This document shows positions 15,646-39,308 of a stretch of DNA of 64,000 bases, piece after piece (within the stretch, counting starts at the first letter, position 1; each line of letters begins with the position of its first letter). The DNA lies in assembly GCA_964645605.1 (NCBI GenBank), contig CAZYCE010000001.1, forward strand, positions 64,063-128,062, in the 5' to 3' direction. Below the pieces are notes generated by a model. It saw only the letters and a list, made by a program, of their open reading frames with translations. It did not search any database and had not been told where the DNA came from. The translations under genes were made by a program, and so were the position numbers. Source of the stretch: an uncultured Gammaproteobacteria bacterium. GTDB taxonomy: Bacteria > Patescibacteriota > Microgenomatia > UBA8517.

Positions 15646-16677
15646 TTAGTTTTTAAAGGCGGGCAAATACATCAGAATATTGACAGAATTGCCGATGTTA
15701 TTAACTGAAGCGGTTCCTTCACTAAGGAAAACCGGTTGAAGGTTTGCCCCACTCTGATTGTCTAAAAGATATACAACCGAAACTTTATTAATCTTTATGT
15801 TGGAGACATCACCTATTTTTAAATCCGGTAAGTTAACGTTGTTGTTATTTAAACTTACAATTATGCTTTGAGGGACCATTTGCAGGAACTCCTCATAATT
15901 CAAAATTGGATATCTTTCAGTTGACTCCTGAAAAACGTATCCGATATTACCTTTAAAGTTAAAAGGGGTACCGTCTTTTAACATCTGTACATACAACTGT
16001 GGCTCATCGGGGTTAACAGTAAATATTGGATAAACGGAAGGGCTTTGAGAATAATTTACCTGCACGATATCAGCATTTTCTTTTGTTGTTTTTAAAAGAT
16101 TCTCGATATTATCCGAAACTTTGTAATAGGTAAAATTGATAAATTTTAAATTGGTGTTATCAAGCCCAACCTTGTTTACCAGAAATTGTGACGCTATTGC
16201 CCGGTATTCGTTTTCGGTTACTTGCTTGTTAACAGTGTTTTTAATAAGTGTGCGAATACCCTTATTCGAAGAATAAAAAATATTGTTTGTTTTTAATATA
16301 ATTGTTAATGAATAATTATCATTATTCCATATCATTATTGTTCCGCTTTGTGCATCGTTCGCCACTATTGGTTTTAATGTAAAACCCATTCTCGCAGCAA
16401 TTTCGTTTGCCATAGATTCGCTAATAACACCGGGCGATATTGGTTTTAGAAAAGGCAGGTTTGGAGGAAAGCTAAAGTCTGATTTATTAATGTGACTTTC
16501 TATTGACAAACTACCTTCTTTAAAATAGTTTGTGATATTTAAAGGTTGACGAACGCCGTTTTGGTTTTCTTCCGTGTTGTTTTTTGCTTTTTTTAACGCC
16601 AAAAATATAAACAACAAAGACGCCACAGACATTATTGCTAAAATTAATATAATTAGCTTTTTATTTATTTTAAACAT
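15646..16677 (-). CDS. Secreted/membrane-anchored hypothetical protein (343 aa), first gene of the accessory island downstream of dnaN.
   Basis: N-terminal signal/anchor KLIILILAIMSVASLLFIFLAL. No known motif. Confidence 0.4.
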   Translation of the reverse strand: MFKINKKLIILILAIMSVASLLFIFLALKKAKNNTEENQNGVRQPLNITNYFKEGSLSIESHINKSDFSFPPNLPFLKPISPGVISESMANEIAARMGFTLKPIVANDAQSGTIMIWNNDNYSLTIILKTNNIFYSSNKGIRTLIKNTVNKQVTENEYRAIASQFLVNKVGLDNTNLKFINFTYYKVSDNIENLLKTTKENADIVQVNYSQSPSVYPIFTVNPDEPQLYVQMLKDGTPFNFKGNIGYVFQESTERYPILNYEEFLQMVPQSIIVSLNNNNVNLPDLKIGDVSNIKINKVSVVYLLDNQSGANLQPVFLSEGTASVNNIGNSVNILMYLPAFKN

Positions 16678-16682
16678 CTTTT

Positions 16683-19427
16683 TTACGGTATGTAACCACA
16701 GTAATTGAATTCATCTGAACAGTTTCTTTTAATATTTTTAGGTATATACGGTGGCTCCATGATTATTCCTCCTATAAATTCATAATGCAAATGAGGTCCC
16801 GTTCCTTGGGTTCCTGAAAGTCCTATTGGTTGTCCAAAGCCGATTTCTCCGTCTTTGGCGAAAACAACAGAAAGATGTGCATACCTTACGGTTACCTGTT
16901 TTCCTCCACAATCGGAAGAAACGTCAACATAATTTGGCCCGTAGGCGGCAACTCCCCTAACAACATTTGCTACGCCGGTAGAAGTTGATTGGACGTGTGT
17001 TCCTACGGGTACGGCAATATCAATAGCCTCATATCCTCGATGACTATAACCACCGTTTGGTGTCTGTGTAATCGGATAACTACCCAATATCGGCCAACCG
17101 GCAGGACACGTATCTGGGGGGTTTCCGATTTTGATTGATGTCGTTGCGGCCGTTTCCTGTTGACCACCATCGGCCGTGTTGGCGCTCACAGTGACAGTAT
17201 TTATTACAAGAGAGTCTTTATACTCACCGCCTGAATAATTTGACTCGTATGAGTAGGAGTATGGACCACTGGTTACAATTTCACCGGGAATATCTGAGGC
17301 AGACGGGGTGTTTGAAGGACATTTCTTGTTTCCCGCAGCAGAAATTATTTGACAATCATCTTTTATTGAGATGTTTGTCAAAGTGCTCTTTTTTGCATTG
17401 ACGGTAACATTATAGGAAACTTTAAGAGGGAGACTTGAATTTTGAAACGGTCCGGAAGGACTGACGTCTTTTTGTACATGTATATAAGGATTCGTGCTCG
17501 TTCCCGCGGTGGCAGTAGGTGGTACTATGTACGCTCCTGAGTTGATAATAAAAAGTATAAAAGCCACAAGAATTGGAGTAACCAATACAGTGATAAATAT
17601 AGGCATAAAGATGGGTGCGATAGCCAATTTACCCAAGGTAACAAAGAAACCTCCAATGCTTGTGCCAACAGCCCCTAAACTAACACTTCCTGCTGACACA
17701 GCAGCAGAAACTCCAAAAGCCCCAAGTCCGGCAATAATTCCCACAACAGGCCCTGCAATCAAAAAGGCTCCAAGACCTATGACGGCACCAATTATGTAGT
17801 CTGCATTCTTTTTAATCCATGGCCCCACCTTTTCCAGAATTTTTCCAAAAACTGCTCCGATAATTAATCCCGCAATTGTGCCGATAACGGGAATTATTCC
17901 AGTTCCAACCGTTGCCCCAACTTTTGCGGCCGCCGCTTGCATACCAAGTTTACTAAGTAAAGAAGACGCACCTCTAGCGATAGCGTTTCCCAGTGTGATA
18001 TTCAAACTTTTTCCTGCGACTGCTTTGGCAACGGCCCCTTCAGTTATTCCCTCCGCAACAACGGCACTCTCGGCAACAATCGCACCTTCCGTGGCAATCA
18101 TCTCGGTTGCAACCGGGGCGACAGCCTGAATGCCTACATTTATACCTAATCGCCCGGCGATATTTGTTATTAATGGGGCATAACCAGGGAAAGCTGTGGT
18201 GATAAGTTTTCCAAAAGAACTGGTACCAACATATTCAAAGTTGGTTTGTAAACCCAAAAACGGGGCTATGCTGTCAAATGCTTGAGAATTGGCAAAACCG
18301 GAGATTTTTCCAAGTGATCCAGTTGTAGTCAAAGATTTTGTTTTTGACAATGCCAACACCTTAAGCTTTGATTCGGCAATCCCCTTTACACTCTCAGTTA
18401 CCGGAGAATTAAAACCGTCGGAGATATCTCCTTCCTGGAAAGAAAAGGAATTATTCTGAAGTTGACCCAGTTTAATTGTAAAAGCTCCGTCAGATTTTTC
18501 AGTGGATAAAATATACTGCTGCTCGACCGGACCCAACACCGTGTTTGTAATATTTTCGCCGAGGGTTCTTAGGAGAACTGTTCTGTAAAGGTTGTCATTA
18601 CTTTCTGAAAACACCGTGAGCATGGATGTTGTTTTTACCAACTCTCTTTGTGCTACGGAACTTAGATCGGGTATCAGTTCAGGAGCCTTTGCGGTCGCAG
18701 CAAAAACTCCCACGGGGACAGGTTTTTGGGCCGGATTAATAAGAGCTTGGGTAGTATCTACCGCAATAATTTGGGACAAGGGTTCTAATATTTCTTTCGG
18801 AATATCCGGATTTTTCTGAGATATGAGTTGCGAAAGTTTTTGAGAAAAGAGCTGAGAATCATTCTTGGCAATATCCACTAGTTTTTGTTCGTTTTCAGAA
18901 AAAATAATATCCGGAACTTTTGTAGCGGGTACAGCATACAAGGTTTTGTCGCCAATCTCTGTCAATACATTCTTTTGGATATCTTTGGGGGCGGCTTGAA
19001 TAATTTTGGCGCGCGATTCATATATCTCCTGCTGTTTATTTATAGATTTTCTTACAGCTTCTTCAGCTTTTGTTTTTGTTTCAAGACTTTCTGTCTCACG
19101 TTTCCGTCTTTCGAGTTCCTGCAACGCGCGTGCTTCCTTGTCCGGCACGTTTGCTTCAACCGGCTTTTCCTCGTTTTCGGATTCTCCCACAAGTTTCTCT
19201 ACAGCAAGTTCTGCCTTTTTAATATTTTCAATATCTTTATCGGACTTTATGCGGATGCCGGTTAGCCTGTAAACAAAATCTATGAAATCGCTTCTGTTTT
19301 TCCAATTAAATTCTCCAGAAACATATGGCTTATCAGAAGAATATATAGCGTCTTCAGGGAAGAAATGGGCAAAGGCAAACCTTAGATAATTTACATTTTC
19401 GGAGGTCAAGCTGATCTTATTTGCCAT
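16683..19427 (-). CDS. Giant (914 aa) membrane protein. Cytoplasmic coiled-coil N-terminus, Gly/Ala-rich multi-helix membrane region, and a C-terminal extracellular M23 (LytM-type) metallopeptidase domain. Candidate cell-wall-remodelling component of the secretion/pilus apparatus.
   Basis: C-terminal GYSHRGYEAIDIAVPVGT… and GPHLHYEF (HxH) motifs are characteristic of M23 peptidases. A glycine-zipper-like hydrophobic block spans residues ~430-620. Directly adjacent to the VirB4-like ATPase. Confidence 0.6.
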   Translation of the reverse strand: MANKISLTSENVNYLRFAFAHFFPEDAIYSSDKPYVSGEFNWKNRSDFIDFVYRLTGIRIKSDKDIENIKKAELAVEKLVGESENEEKPVEANVPDKEARALQELERRKRETESLETKTKAEEAVRKSINKQQEIYESRAKIIQAAPKDIQKNVLTEIGDKTLYAVPATKVPDIIFSENEQKLVDIAKNDSQLFSQKLSQLISQKNPDIPKEILEPLSQIIAVDTTQALINPAQKPVPVGVFAATAKAPELIPDLSSVAQRELVKTTSMLTVFSESNDNLYRTVLLRTLGENITNTVLGPVEQQYILSTEKSDGAFTIKLGQLQNNSFSFQEGDISDGFNSPVTESVKGIAESKLKVLALSKTKSLTTTGSLGKISGFANSQAFDSIAPFLGLQTNFEYVGTSSFGKLITTAFPGYAPLITNIAGRLGINVGIQAVAPVATEMIATEGAIVAESAVVAEGITEGAVAKAVAGKSLNITLGNAIARGASSLLSKLGMQAAAAKVGATVGTGIIPVIGTIAGLIIGAVFGKILEKVGPWIKKNADYIIGAVIGLGAFLIAGPVVGIIAGLGAFGVSAAVSAGSVSLGAVGTSIGGFFVTLGKLAIAPIFMPIFITVLVTPILVAFILFIINSGAYIVPPTATAGTSTNPYIHVQKDVSPSGPFQNSSLPLKVSYNVTVNAKKSTLTNISIKDDCQIISAAGNKKCPSNTPSASDIPGEIVTSGPYSYSYESNYSGGEYKDSLVINTVTVSANTADGGQQETAATTSIKIGNPPDTCPAGWPILGSYPITQTPNGGYSHRGYEAIDIAVPVGTHVQSTSTGVANVVRGVAAYGPNYVDVSSDCGGKQVTVRYAHLSVVFAKDGEIGFGQPIGLSGTQGTGPHLHYEFIGGIIMEPPYIPKNIKRNCSDEFNYCGYIP

Positions 19428-19429
19428 CT

Positions 19430-21295
19430 TTATTTATCTCTATATGGACTGGTATTGATTTTTACTACATCTTGTGGTTTGGTAGTAATTAATTTGTTTT
19501 CGCTTTCTGAGGCAACAACCCTGATTGGGGCATGGTGGGGGCCTGCAAAAAAGATTCCCTCTCCCACATTGGCTGCCAAAAGAAGGCGCTTTTCGCCCTG
19601 GGACAAATAAAACACTTCTCCTATTTTGTCGATTGCTGCCGGAGATTGTTTAAAAAGTACCTGCATGGAGCTATTTGTAACGATCGCCTTACCTATATCC
19701 TGTCCCAAAAAGTCCTCGACGTCCTGAGTGATAGTGGTAAGGCCAAGATAATATTTTCGGGCTCTTTTTACAACACTCCACAAAAACTGGGCAGTATCGG
19801 GATATTTCATCATTTGCCAGGCCTCATCAACAAGCAAGACCCTCTTTTTTAAATCCTTTTTGATTCTGTTCCAAATGTAGTCAAGGATGACAAACATGGC
19901 AATCGGCCGAAGGACGTCTTGAAGGTCTTTGACGGAGAATACCGTGAAGGGGTTTACAATATTTATATTAGTTTGTTGGTCGAAAATTCCGACAAAGCTT
20001 CCTTTAACGAATTTTTCTATACGTGCGGCCAAATCAAGAGCATCGGCAACCTCCATGCCAATCAGGGTTTTATAAAGATCTTCCATTAAAGGGGGTTCTT
20101 TTCCCTGAGTATCGGGATCCATTGTTATTCCTTTTGCCCGGTAGGTCATAATTAGAGCTCTATCAAGAAGTGCCTCCTGGGTTGGAGTAATGGCTCCCAT
20201 GATCACTTTCATTAACGAGTGCAGAGACAAGATCTTAAGACCCAATTGGTTTTCCCCCTCCTCTCTTATTTGGGACAGATCAAATGGGTTAATTTTCGCG
20301 CTGGAATTAAACGAAAAAGCTATATACTCTCCGCCCACAGCTTCAGCTATGCTTTTATATTCACTTTCGGGATCGATAACTATAGTCTCTATCCCAACCA
20401 TAAGAGATCTTAATGCCTCTAATTTTACAAAATATGATTTTCCTGCTCCGGATGTTGCAAAAATTGTCATGTTGGCATTGGGAAGGGTGAATCTATCGAA
20501 AATAATAAAAGATTCGTTTTGGGAATTCATGCCGTACAAAACCCCCCTATCGCTTGAAAGCTCTGTTGAAGTTAGGGGAAATGTGGTGGCAACGGACGTA
20601 GTATCCATGTTCCTGGTTATATTAAGCCTATCTATTCCAAAAGGAGCGGTTGCCAAAAACCCTTCAGCCATATCAAGCGTTGCGTGTTTGCTGAGAACCA
20701 TTAAGGAACCAAGCTGAGATTCAACTTGTTTAGTTACTTGGTTAAGTTCTTCTACGGAGTTGGCGGGAATAGTTATGTAAAAAGCGAATTCATAAAATCT
20801 CTCAATTCCTTTTACAAGTTGTTCTTGAAGGGCCTGTGCATCTTCGAGTTTTGCTTGAGTAACAGGGTCCACTATCTTTCCGCGTTCGATGTCGGTATTC
20901 ATTTCCGCTTCCATTTCAGCAATTTTGCGCCTGAGATCGTCAAGTACGGTTTTACCGTCAACTGGATAAATGTAAAAAGATATATCAAGAGATGTGTCAA
21001 TATTAACAACCGGTTCAAGCCAGCCCGGGGTAACAAACCTTGGGTATCCTCCCACAAAAATTGTCCTGAAATAGACGTCGTTAACTTTTATATAATCAAA
21101 ATCAACCTCGACTGATTGTGGCGAGATGACATCAAGCAAATTATTTTTCTGGGCAATTACAGAATATGCGGGCGAGAGAACAGGAGGCTTTATCTCCGGT
21201 TTGGGGACGGCTGTTTGAGGGCTATTGGTTCTTGTTTGAGTTTCTTGTTTTTTGTCCATATTTTTAAACTTTGGGTGCAACTTCTCTATCTTCAA
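19430..21295 (-). CDS. virB4: VirB4/TraE/TrbE-family conjugative type IV secretion ATPase (Gram-positive PrgJ/TcpF-like).
   Basis: Walker A FATSGAGKSYFVK and Walker B VLLVDEAWQMM. N-terminal FRT…GYP…WL region typical of VirB4/TraE. Length 621 aa. Confidence 0.85.
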   Translation of the reverse strand: MKIEKLHPKFKNMDKKQETQTRTNSPQTAVPKPEIKPPVLSPAYSVIAQKNNLLDVISPQSVEVDFDYIKVNDVYFRTIFVGGYPRFVTPGWLEPVVNIDTSLDISFYIYPVDGKTVLDDLRRKIAEMEAEMNTDIERGKIVDPVTQAKLEDAQALQEQLVKGIERFYEFAFYITIPANSVEELNQVTKQVESQLGSLMVLSKHATLDMAEGFLATAPFGIDRLNITRNMDTTSVATTFPLTSTELSSDRGVLYGMNSQNESFIIFDRFTLPNANMTIFATSGAGKSYFVKLEALRSLMVGIETIVIDPESEYKSIAEAVGGEYIAFSFNSSAKINPFDLSQIREEGENQLGLKILSLHSLMKVIMGAITPTQEALLDRALIMTYRAKGITMDPDTQGKEPPLMEDLYKTLIGMEVADALDLAARIEKFVKGSFVGIFDQQTNINIVNPFTVFSVKDLQDVLRPIAMFVILDYIWNRIKKDLKKRVLLVDEAWQMMKYPDTAQFLWSVVKRARKYYLGLTTITQDVEDFLGQDIGKAIVTNSSMQVLFKQSPAAIDKIGEVFYLSQGEKRLLLAANVGEGIFFAGPHHAPIRVVASESENKLITTKPQDVVKINTSPYRDK

Positions 21296-21980
21296 TTACC
21301 TCTGGTTCCTTTTTGACTGTAGGTTTCTCGGGATTATAAATTGAGTAAAAAAGATTAATAAGCTCGGGGGTTGTAAGTTGTTTAAATTTAATTCCAAGCC
21401 GGCCGGCCTGGCGAATTAGATGATCGCGTCTTGGATAAAGAACAATTTTGGCTTTTTTAATGACATACGATTCCGAAAAAGGAAGGGTTTCTCCCCGTTT
21501 TGTCAAAGCCGCAACAGATTTAGCCACCCCCAGTTCAAGGGGGGAAAGATAAAGAACTACGAAAAACCTTTTGCCCAAAACATTTTTCTTCTTAACGGAT
21601 TCAGAAATGAAGTTTTGATAATCTTGCATAAGTTTGGAAAGAAGGGGTTGCGTAATCTTTTGAGACTGGTCTTTTAGAAAATTTAAATACGACGAGATAT
21701 CCTTCTTCTGAGTTAGAACGACAATCTGTATTGAAAAACTGAGGGAATTTATCATTGCGGCATAGGCTGCGATGACCGCTTCTTGTTCCTTTTCGGATAA
21801 AAGACCGAAGTTAAGGGATGTTGATTCCATAACAAGTGCGGCTCCACCATCTTTGTAAAGAGCCATATCATTTGTGATGTCCGCCACAGGTACAAAATTT
21901 TGTGTAGTTGAATTAAGAGGAGCATCGGGTAATGTTAAAAAAGGAACCCTTAACTTTAATTTTGGTATTATTTTTGCCAT
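21264..21980 (-). CDS. Hypothetical cytoplasmic protein (238 aa) within the T4SS-like island.
   Basis: ORF only. Its 3' end overlaps the virB4 start, suggesting translational coupling. Confidence 0.35.
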   Translation of the reverse strand: MAKIIPKLKLRVPFLTLPDAPLNSTTQNFVPVADITNDMALYKDGGAALVMESTSLNFGLLSEKEQEAVIAAYAAMINSLSFSIQIVVLTQKKDISSYLNFLKDQSQKITQPLLSKLMQDYQNFISESVKKKNVLGKRFFVVLYLSPLELGVAKSVAALTKRGETLPFSESYVIKKAKIVLYPRRDHLIRQAGRLGIKFKQLTTPELINLFYSIYNPEKPTVKKEPEVIEDREVAPKV

Positions 21981-23048
21981 TTAATTATAAATTGTCTGAC
22001 CATTTACGTTTACAGGAACTTGCTGTGTTGTTGATTGTATAAGCCTTCGACCCTCGACAAGTATGGGAGGAACAATTTCTCCCTTGGCCTCAAAATTTAC
22101 AGGCATGAACTGATAACCCTCCTTATCGCTGATGATGCTGTATTTTCCATTATCAAGTGGGGTAACGGCAATAAAATGCCCTAGCTTATTACTTCTGAGG
22201 GCTCTTATCGGACGGCCATATTCATCTCTAATTTCAATGATTGCTCCTTCGACAATTCTTCTTGCCTCATCAACTACTTGGCCAACAATTACGTTTGGAT
22301 TTGTGGGGGGGTTTGGGGGGGCAGCGTCAATCGAGAAAATGGCTTCCTTGGTGGAAACAATTTCTTCGCCGACAATAGTCGGATTAACATTCTGCGTTTT
22401 AATTTGTACTGTCTGGGAAACCGGTTGGGGTTTTTCTTCAACCACCAGGTGTGTCGGTTGTTGTGGCTGGCTGATTTTAACAGGCATGGTAGTTGGAATT
22501 TCCAGCTTTTTGGGTTGGGGAGGGGTGGTTGGGGCAGTTGCCACCTGAGGGGCTGCCGGCGTTGCCGCAATCCTTATCCCTGTAAGCATGTCGGATAGTT
22601 TTGTCAAGAAACCCTGTTCAGCTCCCTCCAGCTTTGCAAGAGGCCCTGGAGGGGCTTTAGTGGCGTTAAGGTAACTTTTGAGAGCCGCTTCCTGACTCTG
22701 TGTCTGTGTGTTTGGTATATTGGTGGTTGGTGTATCATCTGCAAAAAATTTGGGAACTTCTGTAGTTTTTTTCCATCGGAAAATGGTGGGGGAATATATT
22801 GCTCCGAAAAATGCCAAGATCCATTGTTCGAGAGGACGTTCTTGAAGTGGAACAAAAGCCATGGCAGCTCCCAAAATTACAGATACGATTACAAATGGCC
22901 ATTTTATTATTCCGATAAGGGGGGAGGAGTAAAAAACAAGTCCCACCAATACCCCTCCGGCAAGTTCAAAAAATTGCTTCAGGGTCATGTCTCCCACAAG
23001 TTTGAACTGGTATGAACTAACGTTTTGCGGTATCGGATGTTGTTCCAT
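21981..23048 (-). CDS. Membrane protein (355 aa) with two N-terminal TM helices, a Pro/Thr-rich linker and a C-terminal extracytoplasmic domain. Possible VirB3/VirB8-like scaffold of the island.
   Basis: Hydrophobic helices at residues ~30-50 and ~52-72. PTTPPQP-type linker. Functional call is inference from position only. Confidence 0.35.
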   Translation of the reverse strand: MEQHPIPQNVSSYQFKLVGDMTLKQFFELAGGVLVGLVFYSSPLIGIIKWPFVIVSVILGAAMAFVPLQERPLEQWILAFFGAIYSPTIFRWKKTTEVPKFFADDTPTTNIPNTQTQSQEAALKSYLNATKAPPGPLAKLEGAEQGFLTKLSDMLTGIRIAATPAAPQVATAPTTPPQPKKLEIPTTMPVKISQPQQPTHLVVEEKPQPVSQTVQIKTQNVNPTIVGEEIVSTKEAIFSIDAAPPNPPTNPNVIVGQVVDEARRIVEGAIIEIRDEYGRPIRALRSNKLGHFIAVTPLDNGKYSIISDKEGYQFMPVNFEAKGEIVPPILVEGRRLIQSTTQQVPVNVNGQTIYN

Positions 23049-23192
23049 AAAGACAGTAAAAGCAGAAAGCTCTACTCTAGGTTAAGATTAGCGCGTGAAG
23101 TATTCTGTGCAAGAAGTATCGTTTTTCACAGTTTTAATTTTCTTTTATCTCTTGCCTTTCATCTTTTATCTGTGATGTTATATAATTTGCAT

Positions 23193-25817: not shown

Positions 25818-26068
25818 CTTTCAACCGAACAGCTTCCTTCAGAGGAGATTTTGGACAATCACAATTTACTTTTTATTTAAACGACCGTCCTTGCTCATTT
25901 GCGAAATGTAATCTTTTATCCAGTTTGGTAATACCCTCGAGACCCAAACTCGATTAGCACTCTCGGGTGACAATTTTTTATTCAGACCAGTGTAAACTTT
26001 TCTGCTTACGATTTCGTTGAGATCGGTTTTTATATTTTCTACCCCCATTTTTGTTATTATGATATTTA

Positions 26069-27685: not shown

Positions 27686-27725
27686 ATATTTATTCTAGAC
27701 TGTTATATTAAAAAATCAAAGAGTC

Positions 27726-28334
27726 CTAAAGTAAACCATAGGTTCTTATCCAAAGGTCAGCTGTTTCTTGAATGAAAGTTCTTTGACCAAAGATAAAATA
27801 AATATTATGTATATCCACCCCTTTTGTGGCAAGCAATTTTTTAATCTGTTCAAACGAATCAATAAAAGCGACAACATTTGGATTGGTTTCTTTCGATGGA
27901 TCCTGGTTCCTAAAATTAATTCCATAAATTTCTACATGGACAAGATACTCCGGGTCGCTTGGAATGGTATAGACATTTAAGGTGGTTAACATTCCGTTAG
28001 AGTTTTTAAAACTTTCAATGTAAATTGGCAGGCTGCCTTTTAACTTATTTTTGCTTTCAATGGCGGTAATTACTTTGTCGGATGTCATATCAACCTGCCC
28101 CGCGATATTTTCGGGAGGTTTTGAGTATGAAGGTTCTACAAAATTACCGGAAACAGGAGTTGCGGAAATTGATATTGAATTTTGTTCAGCTTGACCGGCG
28201 GGCTGTGCTGAAGATTGGAGGGCTTCCCCGCTCTGATTTTTGGTGGATAATTGAATAAAGACGAGTATCAAAATTGCCACAATGGATAGAATTATGTAAA
28301 TTTTGTATTTTGAAATAAAATTTCTCATTCTCAA
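27726..28334 (-). CDS. Membrane-anchored hypothetical protein (202 aa).
   Basis: Single N-terminal TM (IYIILSIVAILILVFIQL) followed by an extracytoplasmic domain. Confidence 0.35.
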   Translation of the reverse strand: MRMRNFISKYKIYIILSIVAILILVFIQLSTKNQSGEALQSSAQPAGQAEQNSISISATPVSGNFVEPSYSKPPENIAGQVDMTSDKVITAIESKNKLKGSLPIYIESFKNSNGMLTTLNVYTIPSDPEYLVHVEIYGINFRNQDPSKETNPNVVAFIDSFEQIKKLLATKGVDIHNIYFIFGQRTFIQETADLWIRTYGLL

Positions 28335-30920: not shown

Positions 30921-30937
30921 ATTATATCAGCTTGGAC

Positions 30938-31222
30938 TTATGGAGAAATCATTAGATTAAACTGTGTGACATCAACACCTGTAATGTTACTTATAATTAC
31001 AAGGATTATATAAGAAACCAAAATTACAATAAGGCCTATTACCGCGGAAGTAATTGTTTTTTTTGCTCCCTCTGCCGCTTTTGGATCGCCACCCGAAGTG
31101 ATAAACCCGAAACCTCCTATTAAAAGAAGGATGAAGAAAACTATTCCGGCAAGTCCTAATGCATAACCAATCACTCTTTGTAGGATACCGCCCAAATCAG
31201 ATATTTTTGCTACATCATCCAC
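30938..31222 (-). CDS. Pilin-like two-TM small protein (TrbC/VirB2-like, T4SS pilin family), paralog 8 of the tandem array.
   Basis: 94 aa. Helix, then loop ITSGGDPKAAEGAKKTITSAVIGLIVIL, then a second helix. The motif is shared with seven neighbouring genes. Confidence 0.55.
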   Translation of the reverse strand: MDDVAKISDLGGILQRVIGYALGLAGIVFFILLLIGGFGFITSGGDPKAAEGAKKTITSAVIGLIVILVSYIILVIISNITGVDVTQFNLMISP

Positions 31223-31260
31223 GAAAACATTCTAACCTAAACAATTATTTTGAGCAATTA

Positions 31261-31602
31261 TCAAAGATTAATAGTCGGGATCGCGAGGTTGAAGATGTCT
31301 ACGTGGAAGATAGTGTTTATAAGGGCAACTATGGCCCAAGCCGCAAAGACTATAACAAGGCCAACCAAAGCCGCCGTAATCTGATTCCTAGCAGCCTCTG
31401 TTTTGGCCTTATCACCGCCGGAGGCGATCCAGCGAATCCCACCGATAACCAAAATAAAGAAAAATATTATAGCGGCAACAATCACAACAAGCCTTATCCC
31501 TACAGAGATAATGCTTGGAATAGTTAAATTGCCCAATGCGCTAAACTGAGAATCGGAAGACGGTTGAAGGTTGATAGTGTCCTCCGCAAGTAATTTCAAC
31601 AT
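31261..31602 (-). CDS. Pilin-like two-TM small protein (TrbC/VirB2-like), paralog 7.
   Basis: 113 aa. IASGGDKAKTEAARNQITAALVGLVIVF motif between two hydrophobic helices. Confidence 0.55.
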   Translation of the reverse strand: MLKLLAEDTINLQPSSDSQFSALGNLTIPSIISVGIRLVVIVAAIIFFFILVIGGIRWIASGGDKAKTEAARNQITAALVGLVIVFAAWAIVALINTIFHVDIFNLAIPTINL

Positions 31603-31623
31603 ATTTATATTATATACGTATTA

Positions 31624-31983
31624 TTAAATAATTAGCTTACCGATGTCAATACTCAGAATGGAAACGTGGAAAATGTCTTGTATAAGTCCGATTATTGCAA
31701 AAACAGCAAAGAGAATAACAAGACCCACCAACGCGCTGGTAATCCTACTCCTTGCTTTTCCGACTGCCTCTTTATCTCCTCCTGAGGAAATCCACTGAAT
31801 TGCCCCCACCACTAAGTTGAAAAAGAAAACAATCGCACCGACTATCAAAATCAAGGTAACTGCCATCGGAAGAAATTTCTGAAGGAAGCCAATAGAGTTG
31901 GGGTCTTGTCCCAAGGTTGACGGAAGCACGGGGTTTACAATTGAACCCTGAGCCAAATTTTGAGCGATTAAATTATTTAACAT
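31624..31983 (-). CDS. Pilin-like two-TM small protein (TrbC/VirB2-like), paralog 6.
   Basis: 119 aa. ISSGGDKEAVGKARSRITSALVGLVILF motif. Confidence 0.55.
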   Translation of the reverse strand: MLNNLIAQNLAQGSIVNPVLPSTLGQDPNSIGFLQKFLPMAVTLILIVGAIVFFFNLVVGAIQWISSGGDKEAVGKARSRITSALVGLVILFAVFAIIGLIQDIFHVSILSIDIGKLII

Positions 31984-32357
31984 TATTGGCTGTTCGTGAT
32001 TACCCCGAAAAGTGCACCGATATTAAGAATATTTGGAATCCCGATAATTTTGCCTATTAAGTTGATTATAACCAGGGCCAAAATTACAACAATCAAACCG
32101 ATGGCCCCCGTTGTGATTTTTTTCCTGGCGCTTTCCAAGGCTTGCTTATCTCCTCCGGAACCAATGATACTTATCGCCCCGGTTATAAAAGTGAACACAA
32201 ACCAAATAATTGCAACAATTGTCATAACTCCGATTGCCATAGAAATTATTGAAGAAAGTTTTGAGACACCTTGCCCTTCTTCCGTTATGTTGCCAAGCGG
32301 ACCAAGACCTTTAAAGCCTCCCTCGGGTGCAATTGAAATGTCGGTTAGTAATCTCAT
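31983..32357 (-). CDS. Pilin-like two-TM small protein (TrbC/VirB2-like), paralog 5.
   Basis: 124 aa. IGSGGDKQALESARKKITTGAIGLIVVIL motif. The overlapping plus-strand ORF 31996-32376 is judged spurious. Confidence 0.55.
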   Translation of the reverse strand: MRLLTDISIAPEGGFKGLGPLGNITEEGQGVSKLSSIISMAIGVMTIVAIIWFVFTFITGAISIIGSGGDKQALESARKKITTGAIGLIVVILALVIINLIGKIIGIPNILNIGALFGVITNSQ

Positions 32358-32370
32358 GCTTTCAATTTCA

Positions 32371-32883
32371 TTATAAAGTCGGAATCGTCGGGTTGAGTAT
32401 AAAGTCCCACCTTCCGAATATCAACTGTCCGAAAATAGCTGCTAGAACAAATGCCGCCGCTGCAACCACAAGCCCGAGAGCCGTTTGCCAAATTTTGGCC
32501 CACGCACCGGCAACCTTTTTAGGGTCGTCTCCGGCAGAAAGAAAGGCATACCCGGCAAGAATAAAATTGAAAAGGGCATAGATGCCCGCCCCAATAATTA
32601 AAACCCAGATTATTCTTTGAATTAAATTCCCTATCCCAGTTCCCGGGTCTCCCGAAACTGCCACAGGGGGATTAATAGTTCCGAAAGGGTTATTGTTGGG
32701 CGCCGCATTCGAACCCGGTTTACAACAGTGTGCCACACAACGTTCCCCCATGCCGCACTCGGTATCAAGGGTGCATTCAGGAGGATCACACGCAGCAATT
32801 ACACTATTGACATGTAATATCAAACCGATAAAAACCCCTAAGGAAATGTAGAATATTTTCCTAATTTGCATTTTTTTAGACAA
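32371..32883 (-). CDS. Pilin-like module fused to an N-terminal secreted Cys-rich domain (170 aa), paralog 4.
   Basis: Signal peptide, then CDPPECTLDTECGMGERCVAHCCKPG, then C-terminal LSAGDDPKKVAGAWAKIWQTALGLVVAAAAFVL two-helix pilin module. Confidence 0.5.
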   Translation of the reverse strand: MSKKMQIRKIFYISLGVFIGLILHVNSVIAACDPPECTLDTECGMGERCVAHCCKPGSNAAPNNNPFGTINPPVAVSGDPGTGIGNLIQRIIWVLIIGAGIYALFNFILAGYAFLSAGDDPKKVAGAWAKIWQTALGLVVAAAAFVLAAIFGQLIFGRWDFILNPTIPTL

Positions 32884-33196
32884 CCCCAGGAATCCCCAGC
32901 AATTGTCCTATTAATTTTACTATCCAATAGGATGCAAATACAATAACAAAACCAACTACGGCTGATGTAATGGTTTTTTTGGACTTCTCTGCACTTTGAG
33001 GATCGTTTTTGCCGGCCGAACTAATGAGTCCAATTCCTCCCAGAATAAAAAAGAAAAGAAGGGTAATTCCTGCAAGGACAAAGGCGGCATTTAAGAAAAC
33101 TGAAACAATACTGCTTATTCCGGTGGGGCTTTGTAAAGCGCCGGGTCCCGAATTGCCAAAAAAAGCTTCGCCTATAGAAAAAGCAAGTTCATTCAC
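32876..33196 (-). CDS. Pilin-like two-TM small protein (TrbC/VirB2-like), paralog 3.
   Basis: 106 aa. ISSAGKNDPQSAEKSKKTITSAVVGFVIVF motif. Confidence 0.55.
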   Translation of the reverse strand: MNELAFSIGEAFFGNSGPGALQSPTGISSIVSVFLNAAFVLAGITLLFFFILGGIGLISSAGKNDPQSAEKSKKTITSAVVGFVIVFASYWIVKLIGQLLGIPGVV

Positions 33197-33242
33197 AACA
33201 CCATTTTAGTATAGAGTTTTACTTAAGACAAGTGAGTGGATT

Positions 33243-33575
33243 TTATTTTACACCGAAGATTTGACCAAAAAGTGTGGATTCGAGGCCAAAAAGCTGTCCG
33301 AATAGCTGGACAATTGTGAAAGCCACTATTACGATAACAAATCCTATTACCGCATTAGTAATTTTTGCTTGTGCTGCCTGAGCAGCTTTAGGATCCCCTC
33401 TGGAAAGCATAAATTGGAAACCTCCAATAATGAGGTAAATTAAAAGAGCGATTCCGGCAGCACCGAAAATATAGGGCAATACAGTTCCGATTATTTCCCC
33501 AAGAGTAGTATTTGTTCCAAAATTTGCATTTGGGAATGCTCCTTTTTGTATGGATTCAAGATTTTGCGCAAGCAT
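33243..33575 (-). CDS. Pilin-like two-TM small protein (TrbC/VirB2-like), paralog 2.
   Basis: 110 aa. LSRGDPKAAQAAQAKITNAVIGFVIVIV motif. Confidence 0.55.
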   Translation of the reverse strand: MLAQNLESIQKGAFPNANFGTNTTLGEIIGTVLPYIFGAAGIALLIYLIIGGFQFMLSRGDPKAAQAAQAKITNAVIGFVIVIVAFTIVQLFGQLFGLESTLFGQIFGVK

Positions 33576-33577
33576 TT

Positions 33578-34423
33578 TTATTTATTGAAACCAAATTGGT
33601 CTAATCCAAGTATATCAACTCCGATAAAGTTAAGTATAAATATTGAGAATATAAGAAGTATTAACCCTGCAATCGCTGATGTTAAGAGTTCTTGTCCGGC
33701 CTTCATTCGTTCCGGATTGCCGGATGCCGTCATAATCATAAATCCTGCATAAAGCATCAAAGCGAATGCAATACCACTCCCGATACCGACGGCCCACTTG
33801 AGAAGTGCGCCTAAAAAATCATTTGTGGAGCCAAAAACAGGGAAACAGCCAATTGCAGTTTTTATTCCTTGTCCGGAAGTGCCACATGTAATATCGAGTT
33901 TATTTTTTAAATCTACACAAATACCCTCGTCGTTTAGCGAGGAACCGGCACAACAAGTTTGACCAGGACCTGGCTTACCTTTCGATACACAGTTGTGATA
34001 TGGGTCAGTGCCATTCTTTATACACATCAGACCTGATCCGTAATTAAACTCAAAAGTTCCGGTACAACACGGTTTACTTGATGTTGGAACACCACCCTCT
34101 TTTGTGCATCCTCCGGAATTTGATTCTATGCAGTCACAAGTTACAGAAAGATCATAAAGAGAACTACCAGACACGTGACATACGGGTGTAAAGTCTTCGG
34201 AAGGGCAATTGTCAGAGATAACTATTGGATCCGGGTTGGTAAAGCTTCGAATAGTACAAACACATTCAGGGTCCTCGGCAAGTATGGGTTTCGGAGTTAA
34301 GAACAAAAAACTAAAAACAAAAGCACAAACAATAGAAACGGCCTGCAAATATTTTCTCATTCCATTTATTCTAAAACAAAAGGGGTAAAAGTAAAAGAAC
34401 AGTGCTGGTATAATAAATGGCAA
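33578..34423 (-). CDS. Secreted Cys-rich extracellular domain (about 20 Cys) fused to a C-terminal pilin-like two-helix module (281 aa). Candidate pilus tip/adhesin subunit. First gene of the pilin array.
   Basis: N-terminal signal. CVCTIRSF…CPSEDFTPVCHV…CDCIESNSGGCTKEGG…CCTG…CIKNG…CVSKG…CCAG…CVD…CGTSGQG. C-terminus …GSGIAFALMLYAGFMIMTASGNPERMKAGQELLTSAIAGLILLIFSIFIL matches the array motif. Confidence 0.5.
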   Translation of the reverse strand: MPFIIPALFFYFYPFCFRINGMRKYLQAVSIVCAFVFSFLFLTPKPILAEDPECVCTIRSFTNPDPIVISDNCPSEDFTPVCHVSGSSLYDLSVTCDCIESNSGGCTKEGGVPTSSKPCCTGTFEFNYGSGLMCIKNGTDPYHNCVSKGKPGPGQTCCAGSSLNDEGICVDLKNKLDITCGTSGQGIKTAIGCFPVFGSTNDFLGALLKWAVGIGSGIAFALMLYAGFMIMTASGNPERMKAGQELLTSAIAGLILLIFSIFILNFIGVDILGLDQFGFNK

Positions 34424-36102
34424 TGGTCATAAAATTCAATATTTGCCAATTCGGCCTGCGGCTTAGTCTTTCGATGGTTCTTCTGGCTATCGTGTTTTCT
34501 TTTTTAACCTTCACTACGATCAACGCGCAAGATTGCGGAACGGATCTTGATTGTCAGATAGCCCAAATTCAAAGGGATATTGATGCACTTTCTCCGGCTC
34601 AAGAAAAAAACAAACAGGATTTGGCGTCTCTTAACAAGCAAATAGCCGATTTGAATTTTAAAATTGCAAAACTTTCCTCACAACTTAAAACCCTTGAAGA
34701 CCAGATTTCTGCCCGAGAAGAAGACTTATCCTACACAAGGGCAATATTTGAAGAAAAAGCCAGTAGTCACTATACGTTTTTACGACTTTACGATCCGATT
34801 ACTCCGTTTATTTTTTCGGATAGTGCTTCTCAGGCATTCCAGGAGATTATTCTGAGACAAAAAGCGGCTGATGCCGACAGAAATACAATGGAGAAGTACG
34901 CTTCTGATTTGATATCACTTAACGAAGATAAAGTAAATCTAGTTAAAAACAAAGCAAGTATTTCGTCTTTGCAGTCTCAGCTTGCGGAAAAACAGAAATT
35001 TTTAGTGGCAGAAGTGGCAAAAGTAGATACATATCTTTCCTCACTTTCCGCAAAGCAACAAGAACTTTTAGCTGCCAAAAGCGGCAATTTTATCGCAAGT
35101 GTAGGTGACAGCGAGCTTGCAGATGATTATAAGGCTTCAATAAAAGGATTCAGAGAAGCTGCTCCGTCCGGCTCATTCGCTGTTTTTTCTTTTGGTGCCT
35201 ATACCCACAGGAAAGGAATGAGTCAATATGGTGCAAGAGGCAGGGCTCAAAACGGAAAAAAATATGAAGAGATACTAAAGGCATATTACGGAAAGGAAAC
35301 CGTGAAAAAGGATACTGGTGGAACGATTAGTGTTGCAGGATTGGGAAATGTAAATTTTGAAGATTACTATTTGATGGGTATTGCGGAGATGCCGTCAAGC
35401 TGGCACCCGGAAGCATTAAAAGCTCAGGCTGTGGCCGCCCGAACATATGCTTATAGATATAAAATAGCGGGCACACAAATTTGTACAACGGAGGCTTGTC
35501 AGGTATTTAGAAAATCGAAAGCGGACAACCCCCCAGCCGAATGGAAAAAGGCCGTAGAAGATACCCGCGGCCAAGTTTTAGAAGATGTTGTGACATATTA
35601 CTCATCGACGTCGGGTGGGTATTTGACCACTTCAGGTTGGGATACAACCGATGGGGGTGGAGGTGCAAATTTCTTTGACAAAAGTTATGAAAAAATCGGG
35701 GGTTCGCCTTGGGCATATAAGGCCTGGTACAGGCAAGGCTATACTGCGAGCGGAGCAACCTGTGGACAAGATGACCCATGGCTTAATAATGAAGAGTTTA
35801 CTGACATTGTAAACGCAGCGATTGTTCTTAAAAATGGTTCCGACGACAGGGTAACTTCCACATCTACTTCGTGTTGGGGTGGCAATCCATATAGCTATGC
35901 AGAGCTTAGGTCAAAAGGCGGAGTTGGTACAGTAACTAGCGTCTCGGTAATTCAGGGGAATGGTACAACCAATGAAGTTGTAATTAATGGTTCAATTCAC
36001 TTAACAGGGGCGGAATTCAAACAAGCATTTAATTTAAGAGCTCCAGGCTACATTATGATTCCTCAAAAAGGCTTCGCGTTTTTTAATATCGAGAAGAAAT
36101 AG
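34417..36102 (+). CDS. Secreted SpoIID/LytB-domain peptidoglycan-remodelling protein with an N-terminal coiled-coil region (561 aa).
   Basis: GMSQYGARGRAQNGKKYEEILKAYYG matches the SpoIID/LytB signature (GMSQ.GA). N-terminal signal/TM, then a heptad-rich Q/L/K region. Confidence 0.6.
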   Translation: MAMVIKFNICQFGLRLSLSMVLLAIVFSFLTFTTINAQDCGTDLDCQIAQIQRDIDALSPAQEKNKQDLASLNKQIADLNFKIAKLSSQLKTLEDQISAREEDLSYTRAIFEEKASSHYTFLRLYDPITPFIFSDSASQAFQEIILRQKAADADRNTMEKYASDLISLNEDKVNLVKNKASISSLQSQLAEKQKFLVAEVAKVDTYLSSLSAKQQELLAAKSGNFIASVGDSELADDYKASIKGFREAAPSGSFAVFSFGAYTHRKGMSQYGARGRAQNGKKYEEILKAYYGKETVKKDTGGTISVAGLGNVNFEDYYLMGIAEMPSSWHPEALKAQAVAARTYAYRYKIAGTQICTTEACQVFRKSKADNPPAEWKKAVEDTRGQVLEDVVTYYSSTSGGYLTTSGWDTTDGGGGANFFDKSYEKIGGSPWAYKAWYRQGYTASGATCGQDDPWLNNEEFTDIVNAAIVLKNGSDDRVTSTSTSCWGGNPYSYAELRSKGGVGTVTSVSVIQGNGTTNEVVINGSIHLTGAEFKQAFNLRAPGYIMIPQKGFAFFNIEKK

Positions 36103-36117
36103 TATAATTAGTTTAGG

Positions 36118-36729
36118 ATGCCGGATGTATTTGTTTCATCAAAGCACAACAATCAAAACTCCAAGAAGAGAATCAAAGGCTTTTCCGAAAGCGAAAGAAG
36201 GGGGCTTTTTTCTGCTTTTAACCCTTACCCTCAAAATATAAATTTTGAAACAAGAGAAAGCGATGAAAAAATAGTTTTAATGCTTCGACAGCACCCAATA
36301 CTGAACGTCAAATGGATTTTTATAGGGATAATTCTTTTCCTTTTACCGTTTTTTATTGGCAAAACCGGAATCTTAGATCTTCTTCCCAAGGGATACCCGT
36401 TAGTTGTTGTTATGACATGGTATTTGGTCTCTTTTGCATACGTCATTGAGGGGTTTTTCAAGTGGTATTTTAACGTGTTTTTTATAACCACAAGGAGAGT
36501 TATAGATGTAGACTTTTTTAATTTAATTGACAGGAGGGTATCCGATGCCGAAATAGAAAAAATTCAGGATGTTACCTATTCGACAGGTGGAGCCATCGGG
36601 ACAACCTTGAATTACGGAGACGTTTTGATTCAAACAGCTAGCGAAATCCAGCAAATTAGCTTTGAGAAGGTTCCCAATCCCGAAAAAGTTGCCGATATAT
36701 TGGATGATTTAAGAATTGCTGCTCATTAG
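36118..36729 (+). CDS. Membrane protein with two TM helices and a bacterial PH (bPH_2/YdbS-like) domain.
   Basis: TM hairpin (WIFIGIILFLLPFFIGKTGIL…VVVMTWYLVSFAYVIEGFF) followed by a …DVDFFNLIDRRVS…IQDVTYSTGGAIGTTLNYGDVLIQTAS β-rich domain typical of bPH_2. Confidence 0.45.
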   Translation: MPDVFVSSKHNNQNSKKRIKGFSESERRGLFSAFNPYPQNINFETRESDEKIVLMLRQHPILNVKWIFIGIILFLLPFFIGKTGILDLLPKGYPLVVVMTWYLVSFAYVIEGFFKWYFNVFFITTRRVIDVDFFNLIDRRVSDAEIEKIQDVTYSTGGAIGTTLNYGDVLIQTASEIQQISFEKVPNPEKVADILDDLRIAAH

Positions 36730-36739
36730 ATTTTGAAAG

Positions 36740-36961
36740 ATGGAAACTATAATAACCGATTTTAATATTTGGATAATAGTCAAGATTTTGCTAGCCATCG
36801 TCTTGGGGATGTATGTATTTTTTGCTTTTGTAATCACAAGACAGGTAAGAGTCATGACAAATACCTTGACTTTGGGTTTTGAATCAGTGGCTAAATTCTT
36901 GGCATTTATACATTTGTTGTTTGCAATTTTCGTTTTTATAACGGCAATAACAGTTCTTTAG
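36740..36961 (+). CDS. Small (73 aa) two-TM membrane protein.
   Basis: Two hydrophobic helices. Tightly packed between neighbouring genes on the same strand. Confidence 0.3.
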   Translation: METIITDFNIWIIVKILLAIVLGMYVFFAFVITRQVRVMTNTLTLGFESVAKFLAFIHLLFAIFVFITAITVL

Positions 36962-36962
36962 G

Positions 36963-38834
36963 ATGCTAAGAATACAAAGTGCCAAAGTTACGGCTTCCCC
37001 CGGAGGTACCGGTTGGGTGCAAATTCACGGATTTTCGCCTGCAGAATCTGATCAGGTAAAAACCAGAGGACAGCTTTTTATTGTGATTGCCTCTCGAAAC
37101 GGAAACGAGGGTATTGAAGCCATTTCTTTTGAAAGGAAAATTGTCGGAGAAATAAGAGAGAGTTATTATAATTCAGGCGATGCGAAGGCTTTTGATGCTC
37201 TTTCGGGAGCCGTCCGAAAGGTAGCCGTAGAGACTAAAACTGCAGGGGAGGATGTTGAAATTGCCGGCTGCGCTTTTGCCGACGGAGTTTTATATTCCTC
37301 GGCTTTTGGCGGCAGTAGTGTGATTGTCAGTCGGGACGGATCTTTTGCATCAATTTTGGAAAGTGAATCGGATGTTATTGCCGCATCGGGTTTCCCGAAA
37401 GAGGGAGATGTGGTTATTGTTGGGACAAAGGCTTTTTTTGAAAAAGTAACGCTCGGGGATCTTAAAAAAGCCCTGATAAGTAAAAATCCGGAAGCGGCTG
37501 TTGAGGAGCTGACACCGCTTGTTTACGGCGGGGTTGAAATAGGAACTTCAGGGGCGGTAATTATTAAGTTCGAAGAAACTCCGGAAATTCGTCAACCAGC
37601 GCAAGTTACCATTCCGGCAGAGAAAGTTGCGGAACCGAAAATCGATTTGGCAAAAAAGTTTTCCGGTTTTTGGAGCGGAATAGTAAAAAAAGTTCCCAGG
37701 AGAAATATATATATAAAACCGGAAATGGAGGATCAGGCGACTTCCCAAAGCAAAAAACTAACTCTTTCTGTGGGAGTTATCCTCCTTCTCATATTGGCGG
37801 TAAGCGTAGGCTTTGGTATCAGACAAAAAAGATTAAATGATGTTAAAAAAGAATATCAGGGACTATTAACTCAAGCCACAAACGAAGTGGATCAAGCAAT
37901 TAGTCTGGCCAGCTCGAACCCCGAGGAGTCAAGGCAACTTTTTCTAGACAGTGAACAAAAGTTGGTACAAATACAAGCCTTGAAAGTCAAGGATGTAAAA
38001 ATTGAAGAACTACAGAAAAAAATTGAGGACAGTCGGGCTGCGGTTTTGGGTGAATATAGCGTGAATCCTGAGCTTTTCTTGGATCTTGGCCTCCTTTCCT
38101 CAGGATTTAAAGGTGATGCGATCTCTTCATCGGGCGGAAGCCTTTACGTTCTTGATAAAACCGGATCCAGGGTTGTTGGTATCGCCCTTGATACCAAAAA
38201 GAGCAAGGTGGTTTCCGGCCCCACAGTGATCGATAGCCCTCAGGATCTGGCATCATATGAAGACAGCGTTTTTGTTCTGCTATCCGACGGAATTTATTTG
38301 ACAGAGTCCACCAAAACGAAAGTTATCGATAAAACTTGGGGCGGGGAAGCTTTGATATGCGCTTTTGGAGGAAACCTTTACGTTCTTGATAAAACCGGAA
38401 ATGCCATTTATAGATACGCGGGGAGCTCCGGAAACACTTTTGGGACTCAGCAACCCTGGCTTTCAAGCTCGACTCAGGCGAATTTCTCAAACGCAGTTTC
38501 CTGGGGAATAAATGGGGCAGTATATGTTCTTTATCCCAACTCCAAAATCTTGAAATACAGTCTCGGTTCTCCTCAAAGTTTCTCTTTGTCGGGGGTAACG
38601 CCGGAAATAGGAAACGTAGACGCAATCTATGCGGATCCTGATAATACCTACGTTTATTTACTTGATAAAGCAGGTAATCGTATAGTGGTGATTGACAAAA
38701 ACGGAAAATATAGGGCTCAATACATCAGTGACCAGATTTCATCCGCTACTAGGATAGTTGCCTCCGAAGCTGAAAAGAAAATTATTTTTCTCACAGGGGA
38801 GAAGCTTCTTTCAATCGAGATAAAACATCTTTAA
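36963..38834 (+). CDS. Bitopic membrane protein (623 aa). Cytoplasmic N-domain, central TM helix, and C-terminal extracytoplasmic β-propeller-like repeats.
   Basis: TM LTLSVGVILLLILAVSVGFGI near residue 265. Repeated …G(G/N)SLYVLDKTGxxVxxI… units in the C-terminal half. Confidence 0.45.
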   Translation: MLRIQSAKVTASPGGTGWVQIHGFSPAESDQVKTRGQLFIVIASRNGNEGIEAISFERKIVGEIRESYYNSGDAKAFDALSGAVRKVAVETKTAGEDVEIAGCAFADGVLYSSAFGGSSVIVSRDGSFASILESESDVIAASGFPKEGDVVIVGTKAFFEKVTLGDLKKALISKNPEAAVEELTPLVYGGVEIGTSGAVIIKFEETPEIRQPAQVTIPAEKVAEPKIDLAKKFSGFWSGIVKKVPRRNIYIKPEMEDQATSQSKKLTLSVGVILLLILAVSVGFGIRQKRLNDVKKEYQGLLTQATNEVDQAISLASSNPEESRQLFLDSEQKLVQIQALKVKDVKIEELQKKIEDSRAAVLGEYSVNPELFLDLGLLSSGFKGDAISSSGGSLYVLDKTGSRVVGIALDTKKSKVVSGPTVIDSPQDLASYEDSVFVLLSDGIYLTESTKTKVIDKTWGGEALICAFGGNLYVLDKTGNAIYRYAGSSGNTFGTQQPWLSSSTQANFSNAVSWGINGAVYVLYPNSKILKYSLGSPQSFSLSGVTPEIGNVDAIYADPDNTYVYLLDKAGNRIVVIDKNGKYRAQYISDQISSATRIVASEAEKKIIFLTGEKLLSIEIKHL

Positions 38835-39305: not shown

Positions 39306-39308
39306 GTC

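Follow-up and report, generated by a model that had tools for sequence, protein, structure and literature searches.

The locus and the question it raises

What kind of machinery is encoded next to dnaA and dnaN, two genes for replication, in the window, a 64-kb stretch of contig CAZYCE010000001.1? The original prediction, made from the sequence, placed directly after dnaA-dnaN a mostly minus-strand cluster of non-housekeeping genes and compared it to a minimal type IV secretion system (T4SS) of the Gram-positive type, with ATPase, channel, hydrolases and pilin, in an organism with a reduced genome. For the follow-up, the open reading frames (ORFs) of the window were mapped and its larger ORFs were scanned for Pfam and NCBIfam domains. 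Judged from sequence comparisons, the locus is very probably a chromosomal, vertically inherited T4SS of the Patescibacteria clade, carried by a Microgenomatia (Woesebacteria-like) bacterium. The comparison made at the outset is supported: the make-up of the locus, pilins and cell-wall hydrolases included, is that of a Gram-positive-type T4SS related to MPF-FATA, in a reduced-genome organism belonging to the CPR (candidate phyla radiation), with the channel protein (VirB6) still at the stage of a candidate.

The genes were found where they had been located. The first ORF of the cluster ends at 15646, five bases past dnaN, and the block is mostly on the minus strand. In the order of minus-strand transcription it encodes eight pilins, proteins of 861, 202 and 538 amino acids (aa), a PrgI-family protein of 355 aa, a protein of 238 aa, VirB4, and proteins of 914 and 343 aa; one large plus-strand gene lies between prgI and the gene for the 538-aa polytopic protein. 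The right boundary of the T4SS block is at 34423. The features are as follows.

12952-14313, plus strand: dnaA (Pfam Bac_DnaA, 1e-63)
14528-15640, plus strand: dnaN (Pfam DNA_pol3_beta domains)
15646-16677, minus strand: 343-aa bitopic protein, its N-terminal transmembrane (TM) helix followed by three PepSY-like alpha/beta domains (YpeB/YycH/YycI type)
16683-19427, minus strand: 914-aa membrane protein with a C-terminal M23 (LytM) domain (PF01551)
19430-21295, minus strand: VirB4 ATPase (NF045971, PF19044, PDB 4ag5)
21264-21980, minus strand: 238-aa TrsD/TraC-like protein (VirB4 N-terminal and TrsD matches in NCBIfam)
21981-23048, minus strand: 355-aa PrgI (VirB3-like) membrane protein (PF12666, 29.0 bits, cutoff 27)
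23193-25817, plus strand: 874-aa orphan protein with a mostly helical body and a disordered N-terminal region of ~70 aa
25866-26048, minus strand: 60-aa ORF of uncertain status, 20 nucleotides (nt) downstream of the VirB6-like gene
26069-27685, minus strand: 538-aa polytopic protein, predicted to have ~7-8 TM segments besides a signal peptide; VirB6 candidate
27726-28334, minus strand: 202-aa bitopic protein with an N-terminal TM segment (residues 12-30; TM prediction)
28335-30920, minus strand: 861-aa secreted protein (signal peptide prediction) with 29 Cys
30938-34423, minus strand: eight VirB2-like pilin genes (PF18895 T4SS_pilin, E 1.4e-11 to 9e-4)
30938-31222, 31261-31602, 31624-31983 and 31983-32357, minus strand: pilins 1-4 (PF18895)
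32371-32883, 32876-33196, 33243-33575 and 33578-34423, minus strand: pilins 5-8 (PF18895)

The motor and its anchor

The ATPase had been called VirB4/TraE-type, and this assignment stands on each of the family searches, so the prediction survives the refuting condition set for it at the outset. It scores 364.5 bits against the NCBIfam model NF045971 ('VirB4-like conjugal transfer ATPase, CD1110 family'; cutoff 325), covering model positions 183-735 of 752, and it matches PF19044 (E 3e-27) and the solved C-terminal domain of VirB4 (PDB 4ag5, E 4e-44). Walker A (GAGKS) and Walker B (LLVDEAW) motifs are visible in its translation. The protein is without the usual N-terminal ~180 residues of VirB4. 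The gene for the 238-aa protein, which overlaps the start of virB4 by 32 nt, supplies this missing domain; its product matches N-terminal parts of two VirB4 models in NCBIfam (Mbov_0397, model positions 102-285, E 4.5e-11; CD1110, model positions 29-113) as well as TrsD (NF041427, 3e-7). Its orthologues bear the TraC-like domain PF26593. The 238-aa protein is equivalent to the N-terminal domain of VirB4, encoded as a separate upstream gene, and together with VirB4 it makes up the cytoplasmic motor, for which PrgI is the membrane anchor. The third member of this group, PrgI, continues beyond its family domain into a linker rich in Pro and Gln and ends in a CarboxypepD_reg-like beta domain (PF13620, 3e-4).

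Conservation of the locus across relatives

To place the locus among its relatives, one genome per species was scanned; the 80 loci that this returned were then searched with all window proteins. The question whether the cluster is conserved beside the origin or variable found a clear answer: of the 61 loci whose sequence extends 6 kb or more past virB4 on the downstream side, 60 carry dnaN no further than 6 kb from virB4, across several lineages of Microgenomatia and Paceibacteria and with VirB4 identity down to 57%. Of 82 loci, 76 contain TrsD and 74 contain PrgI. VirB4 itself has thousands of close relatives; the top matches listed are 81-100% identical to it, and the named ones belong to Candidatus Woesebacteria, Microgenomates or Patescibacteria.

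Two layouts were seen. In the first (Microgenomatia type, as in the window), virB4 is followed by the hydrolase, a small gene and then a convergent dnaN-dnaA pair; in the second (Paceibacteria-like), the order is hydrolase, 343-aa homologue, prgI, trsD, virB4 and then a co-directional dnaA-dnaN pair. Three related loci with called genes (L001, L085 and L086) share the gene order of the window, and two of these (L085 and L086) follow it end to end, with eight pilins and then the gene for a SpoIID-domain protein. The original prediction had spoken of an island. The GC content of the locus equals that of its flanks, which together with the dnaN/dnaA linkage in 60 of 61 related loci contradicts this description: the cluster is a conserved core locus, not a variable island gained by horizontal transfer.

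Within this conserved order the proteins diverge at very different rates. Identity to relatives is 81-91% for VirB4 (as conserved as DnaA), 71-83% for TrsD and 51-76% for PrgI, and falls to 34-40% for the VirB6-like protein, 30-38% for the hydrolase and 32-47% for the 861-aa protein. Such a gradient would be expected if the envelope and surface parts track a changing partner.

The pilin array

All eight consecutive ORFs of the array match PF18895, five above the gathering score and three just below it, and each encodes two hydrophobic helices, in agreement with the eight tandem paralogous two-helix pilin-like genes noticed originally. The paralogues are 28-39% identical to one another, and every one of them has a collinear orthologue, 49-82% identical, in both L085 and L086. 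The array is therefore old, with every copy kept, which speaks for distinct roles (e.g., one major subunit type and minor ones) and against a recent duplication that would serve antigenic variation.

The loop between the two pilin helices is positively charged, from which we infer a VirB2-like topology with both ends outside. Pilins five (170 aa, 6 Cys) and eight (281 aa, 18 Cys) carry a signal peptide and a Cys-rich domain before the pilin hairpin, and given this topology these extensions would be displayed outside the cell.

The wall hydrolase and its neighbour

The 914-aa protein was described at the outset as a membrane protein ending in an M23 peptidase, and the searches agree. TM prediction gives it 4-5 TM segments in a block rich in Gly and Ala; a cytoplasmic N-region of ~430 aa precedes this block and an extracellular C-region follows it, in which residues 800-884 form the M23 domain (PF01551, E 8e-10; alignment with ShyA, 6ue4, E 4e-10). 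Sub-region scans of the N-terminus with Pfam and NCBIfam models gave only noise. In the M23 domain the HLH motif is kept; where HxxxD would be canonical the sequence is Y-E-A-I-D, and a His stands three residues upstream. A homologue of the gene stands after virB4 or before prgI in at least 40 loci. The protein is probably a cell-wall hydrolase that is PrgK-like in position; its catalytic activity is uncertain, as it is for degenerate LytM domains elsewhere.

The gene of the 343-aa protein is a conserved partner of the hydrolase gene: its family follows immediately in 26 loci, which include both layouts. The AlphaFold model of the window protein (predicted local distance difference test score, pLDDT, 84.4) consists of the TM helix and three alpha/beta domains, and a search of the family profile against PDB sequences gave chance-level matches only. 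The protein resembles YpeB/YycH more closely than VirB8, and a VirB8-like scaffold role is still conceivable. SleB, a lytic enzyme of the spore cortex, has YpeB as its partner, and PepSY domains regulate proteases. By analogy, the 343-aa protein may position or restrain the adjacent M23 protein.

The candidate channel and other envelope proteins

The family of the 538-aa protein occupies the same position in 28 loci. The window protein has no VirB6-family match of its own, and the family profile found nothing in the PDB. Single sequences among the 19 family members match TrbL/VirB6 (0.0015), the CD3337/EF1877 mobilome membrane protein (0.0037) and the MMCAP2_0566 conjugal transfer protein (0.0034); these three matches agree with one another, and each is weak. 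A VirB6-like polytopic protein had been claimed here; topology and position fit, the window protein is without a match, and those of its family are isolated and weak. The 60-aa ORF that follows gave only noise in the Pfam and NCBIfam scans; its sole similarity (32%) is to L085, whose VirB6-like protein is longer and matches it in the C-terminal tail. The VirB6-like gene of the window may be split or truncated at its 3' end, with the 60-aa ORF as its detached C-terminal tail.

For the 202-aa protein no homologue was found in 84 related loci and no match in Pfam or the PDB, and NCBIfam gave only noise; it is lineage-specific, and VirB8-like by size and topology alone. In 13 loci a member of the 861-aa protein's family separates the pilins from the VirB6-like gene, and two of 12 family members match the lysozyme-like domain PF18896 (SLT_3) at 5e-9. 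The window member has no domain match, its C-terminus gave only noise in Pfam and NCBIfam scans, and the PDB search returned nothing useful. It is likely a surface or cell-wall-acting component.

A variable gene on the opposite strand

Two very large secreted proteins had been proposed for the locus. The 861-aa protein, with its signal peptide, fits this proposal, but the 874-aa protein does not: its ORF, listed from 23025, in truth begins at 23193, as an exact database copy of 874 aa confirms, and from this start no signal peptide or TM segment is predicted. No match for its fold was obtained and the PDB sequence search gave nothing useful.

What distinguishes this gene is its behaviour across relatives. 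An opposite-strand ORF of 530-1340 aa lies between the VirB6-like and PrgI anchors in 24 of the 26 loci that have both, and these ORFs form many groups without detectable mutual similarity. In L084 the first 53 codons and 54 upstream bases are kept at 91% nucleotide identity, while the remaining 711 residues cannot be aligned with the window protein. By its VirB6-like protein, L084 (54% identical to the window) is closer than L085 (40%); L085 nevertheless holds a full-length orthologue of the 874-aa protein that is 70% identical. The gene looks like the occupant of a replaceable slot, conserved in position and hypervariable in sequence, in an otherwise rigid operon.

One idea is that the slot holds replaceable cargo, a large cytoplasmic protein that would be a substrate or effector of the T4SS, polymorphic and passed to the host, or else a lineage-specific adaptor that replaces the missing coupling protein; the short, conserved, disordered N-terminal peptide would dock on VirB4/TrsD, and the body would be swapped or diversify fast between strains. 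We consider this quite improbable, and the protein may also be something unrelated. The slot for a hypervariable cytoplasmic protein, which could hold the long-sought T4SS substrate, is the main lead from the locus.

The N-terminal peptide of the 874-aa protein heads two body classes among 31 full-length proteins. A polymorphic-toxin-like architecture was considered for the family and set aside as weakly supported, with just these two classes. Small extra genes also come and go across relatives between prgI and the opposite-strand gene. In L083 this spot holds a 127-aa protein (3358-3741, minus strand) of the 23S_rRNA_IVP four-helix-bundle family (E 2e-34), which also has a weak bAvd-like match; elsewhere it holds unrelated genes of 172, 181 or 364 aa, and in the window none.

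Proposed mechanism and alternative explanations

Taken together, these parts suggest the following working model. Hexamers of VirB4/TrsD would dock via PrgI on the VirB6-like channel and form a monoderm translocon. The M23 protein, possibly with the lysozyme-like or SpoIID proteins, would open the wall locally, and the PepSY-like 343-aa partner may restrain or position this hydrolase. Pilins would be pulled from the membrane into a surface filament, with the Cys-rich extensions of two of them facing outward. The filament would contact a host cell and serve protein export or the uptake of host material, not conjugation, and proximity to the origin may give the genes a high dosage. As the original prediction had it, no relaxase, VirD4-type ATPase (type IV coupling protein, T4CP) or integrase was found among the larger ORFs scanned in the whole window. 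Its proposal of a non-conjugative host-contact apparatus fits current opinion, in which such a role is the accepted inference.

Several points weigh against this model or parts of it. For T4SS of Patescibacteria, those of Microgenomatia above all, neither cargo nor function has been demonstrated, and nobody has yet seen a pilus. Within the locus, the M23 domain is without the canonical first His, the VirB6 identity of the 538-aa protein depends on weak and scattered matches, and no convincing VirB8 was found. A VirD4-like ATPase could also sit outside the window, as most lie far from virB4 (PMC12102498).

Protein export is the direction favoured in the literature. The alternative that survives best is an import machine for DNA or nucleotides, comparable to H. 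pylori ComB or archaeal Ced, which would feed an organism unable to make nucleotides. This idea was raised in a 2024 PNAS perspective that discusses the Patescibacteria T4SS and calls its role unknown. The absent relaxase and T4CP fit a non-donor role, and VirB4 does match the DNA-import ATPase CedB at 4e-15; that score, however, is 55 bits, far under the cutoff of 700, and no CedA-like or ComEC partner was found in the locus. We regard import as unlikely, though worth keeping in mind; it concerns the direction of transport only and is compatible with the identity of the locus as a T4SS of the Patescibacteria clade.

An integrated conjugative element (ICE) or ICE remnant whose function is DNA transfer to other cells is much harder to reconcile with the data. 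In its favour, the conjugation family CD1110/MPF-FATA includes VirB4, while TrsD and PrgI belong to protein families of conjugation plasmids. Against this, the 64 kb contain, besides the lack of relaxase, T4CP and integrase, no repeat-bounded ends that we could find, the composition is that of the flanks, the site adjacent to dnaN is fixed in 60 of 61 loci over VirB4 identities down to 57%, and VirB4 is as conserved as DnaA. Relaxases are also rare in the group as a whole, with only 103 of about 3,000 genomes carrying one (PMC12102498). This reading is very improbable. A locus for type II secretion, a competence pilus or a type IV pilus, which many small tandem pilin-like genes beside membrane proteins might bring to mind, is hardly credible, since the pilins are VirB2-type PF18895 two-helix hairpins and not type IV prepilins, the ATPase is VirB4, and Pfam found no PilB/PilT/PilC, prepilin peptidase or secretin in the region, of which the lack of PilB/PilT and secretin had been stated originally. 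Both the type IV pilus and the ICE were rejected on the family assignments.

Relation to described systems

The set of genes had been thought possibly undescribed. It is not: nearly all ultrasmall Patescibacteria have such a gene cluster beside their origin of replication, and the T4SS of Patescibacteria, its missing relaxase, its pilin arrays and its proximity to dnaA were published between 2020 and 2025, and the system is covered by PMC12102498, PMC10633639 and PMC12857230. The survey of Quinonero-Coronel et al. 2025 (PMC12102498) reports virB4 in 2,417 of 3,035 Patescibacteria genomes and finds that these form one monophyletic clade inside the MPF-FATA class of monoderms. The most frequent accessory there is TrsD and PrgI/VirB3 is also reported; VirB6 is scarce in Microgenomatia, which is attributed to divergence, and VirB8 is nearly undetectable. 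Hydrolases with M23 domains occur, as do 441 VirB2 arrays with 2-11 pilin genes each, above all in Microgenomatia and Saccharimonadia; in Microgenomatia and Paceibacteria, the genes that most often neighbour virB4 are dnaA, dnaN, rnpA and rpmH. The window agrees with this survey in having VirB4 with adjacent TrsD and PrgI, M23 hydrolases, no nearby relaxase or T4CP, a VirB2-like array (eight genes here) and a place beside dnaA/dnaN with rnpA/rpmH/yidC beyond; nothing essential is different. What it adds in detail is the one-to-one orthology of pilins across species, the YpeB/YycH-like hydrolase partner and the hypervariable opposite-strand slot.

A second point of comparison is Southlakia epibionticum ML1 (Saccharibacteria), in which SEML1_0006-0019 are essential for epibiotic growth by transposon sequencing (Tn-seq; Wang et al. 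2023, PMC10633639); pilins and the lack of coupling and relaxase proteins were noted for that cluster too. It is likewise origin-proximal, and its order (hydrolases, VirB4, a TrsD-like protein of 293 aa, PrgI, a large unknown protein, VirB6-like protein, pilin array) is nearly that of the window. Apart from the lineage (Saccharimonadia versus Microgenomatia), it differs in having six pilins on the opposite strand rather than eight on the same strand, hydrolases of the lysozyme type instead of M23, an NTF2-like protein (SEML1_0012), and a large protein between prgI and virB6 that is co-oriented there and on the opposite strand here.

The Gram-positive conjugative T4SS of the MPF-FATA class (pCF10 prgH-I-J-K-L; pGO1 trs; CTn2 CD1110) share the VirB4 family, TrsD and PrgI with the window. 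They likewise have a multi-domain wall hydrolase, anchored in the membrane, after virB4, encode a polytopic membrane protein and lack an outer-membrane core. Unlike the window locus, they have a relaxase and a T4CP, have no VirB2 pilins, use adhesins and reside on mobile elements, and it is in the window that the N-domain of VirB4 is a separate gene.

The T4SS of Patescibacteria is thought to be central to ultrasmall, biosynthetically poor bacteria that live on other cells and is essential in the one species tested, and a 2025 review of T4SS that covers it calls its role unknown (PMC12857230). The window holds no new kind of system; it offers a clean Microgenomatia example together with testable leads (the pilins, the YpeB/YycH-like partner and the slot).

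Boundary and neighbouring genes

To the right of the pilin array, four plus-strand genes follow.

34417-36102, plus strand: SpoIID-domain protein (PF08486, 3e-20) that has a coiled coil and, N-terminally, a TM/signal segment
36118-36729, plus strand: bPH_2 membrane protein (Pfam), syntenic neighbour
36740-36961, plus strand: DUF5657 (Pfam), syntenic neighbour
36963-38834, plus strand: 623-aa single-TM protein with a beta-propeller-like C-region, syntenic neighbour

Their order is identical in L085 and L086. The SpoIID-domain enzyme, whose prediction PF08486 substantiates, is divergent from the pilin array, a position shared with L085 (81% identical) and L086 (51%); it is a possible accessory, and its membership of the system is putative only. 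Pfam scans found no T4SS signature in the genes at 34417-38834. Of the 23-kb extent first proposed (15646-38834), the T4SS genes therefore account for the part up to 34423, while the rest consists of syntenic neighbours.

Beyond them the housekeeping genes resume, beginning with smpB directly followed by the tmRNA (38871-39675, plus strand; tag peptide ARNSFQAQPNYAVAYA). The other larger ORFs of the window are housekeeping genes as well, among them tsaE/tsaD, leuS, rplY, yidC, rnpA, dnaG, rpoD and pgk.

Other observations in the window

A 333-aa LAGLIDADG homing-endonuclease-like ORF (40561-41562, minus strand) slightly overlaps tRNA-Ser(GCT) (40489-40575). It is apparently free-standing rather than intron-borne and lies among four tRNA-Ser genes and one tRNA-Arg gene (40.4-43.5 kb). 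A group I intron (Rfam RF00028, 66 bits) lies within 51232-51577 (plus strand); the window has no rRNA gene. The sequence around the intron reads as an intron-split tRNA, with a 5' half (TCCCCTGTAGCTCAATGGTAGAGC...) from near 51313 and a 3' half that ends ...GGAGGTTCGAGTCCTCCCGGGGGAGCCA near 51577, a gene that ARAGORN misses.

Two tRNA synthetase genes are short for their families: a class I synthetase with a match to the LeuRS editing domain (2176-4233, plus strand; only 685 aa) and a class II (D/K/N) synthetase ORF (54869-55849, plus strand; only 326 aa). Both may be reduced or split. Finally, many public records of metagenome-assembled genomes that carry the patescibacterial locus (L007, L011, L012 and others) are titled 'uncultured Gammaproteobacteria' or 'Pseudomonadales' and are apparently mislabelled.

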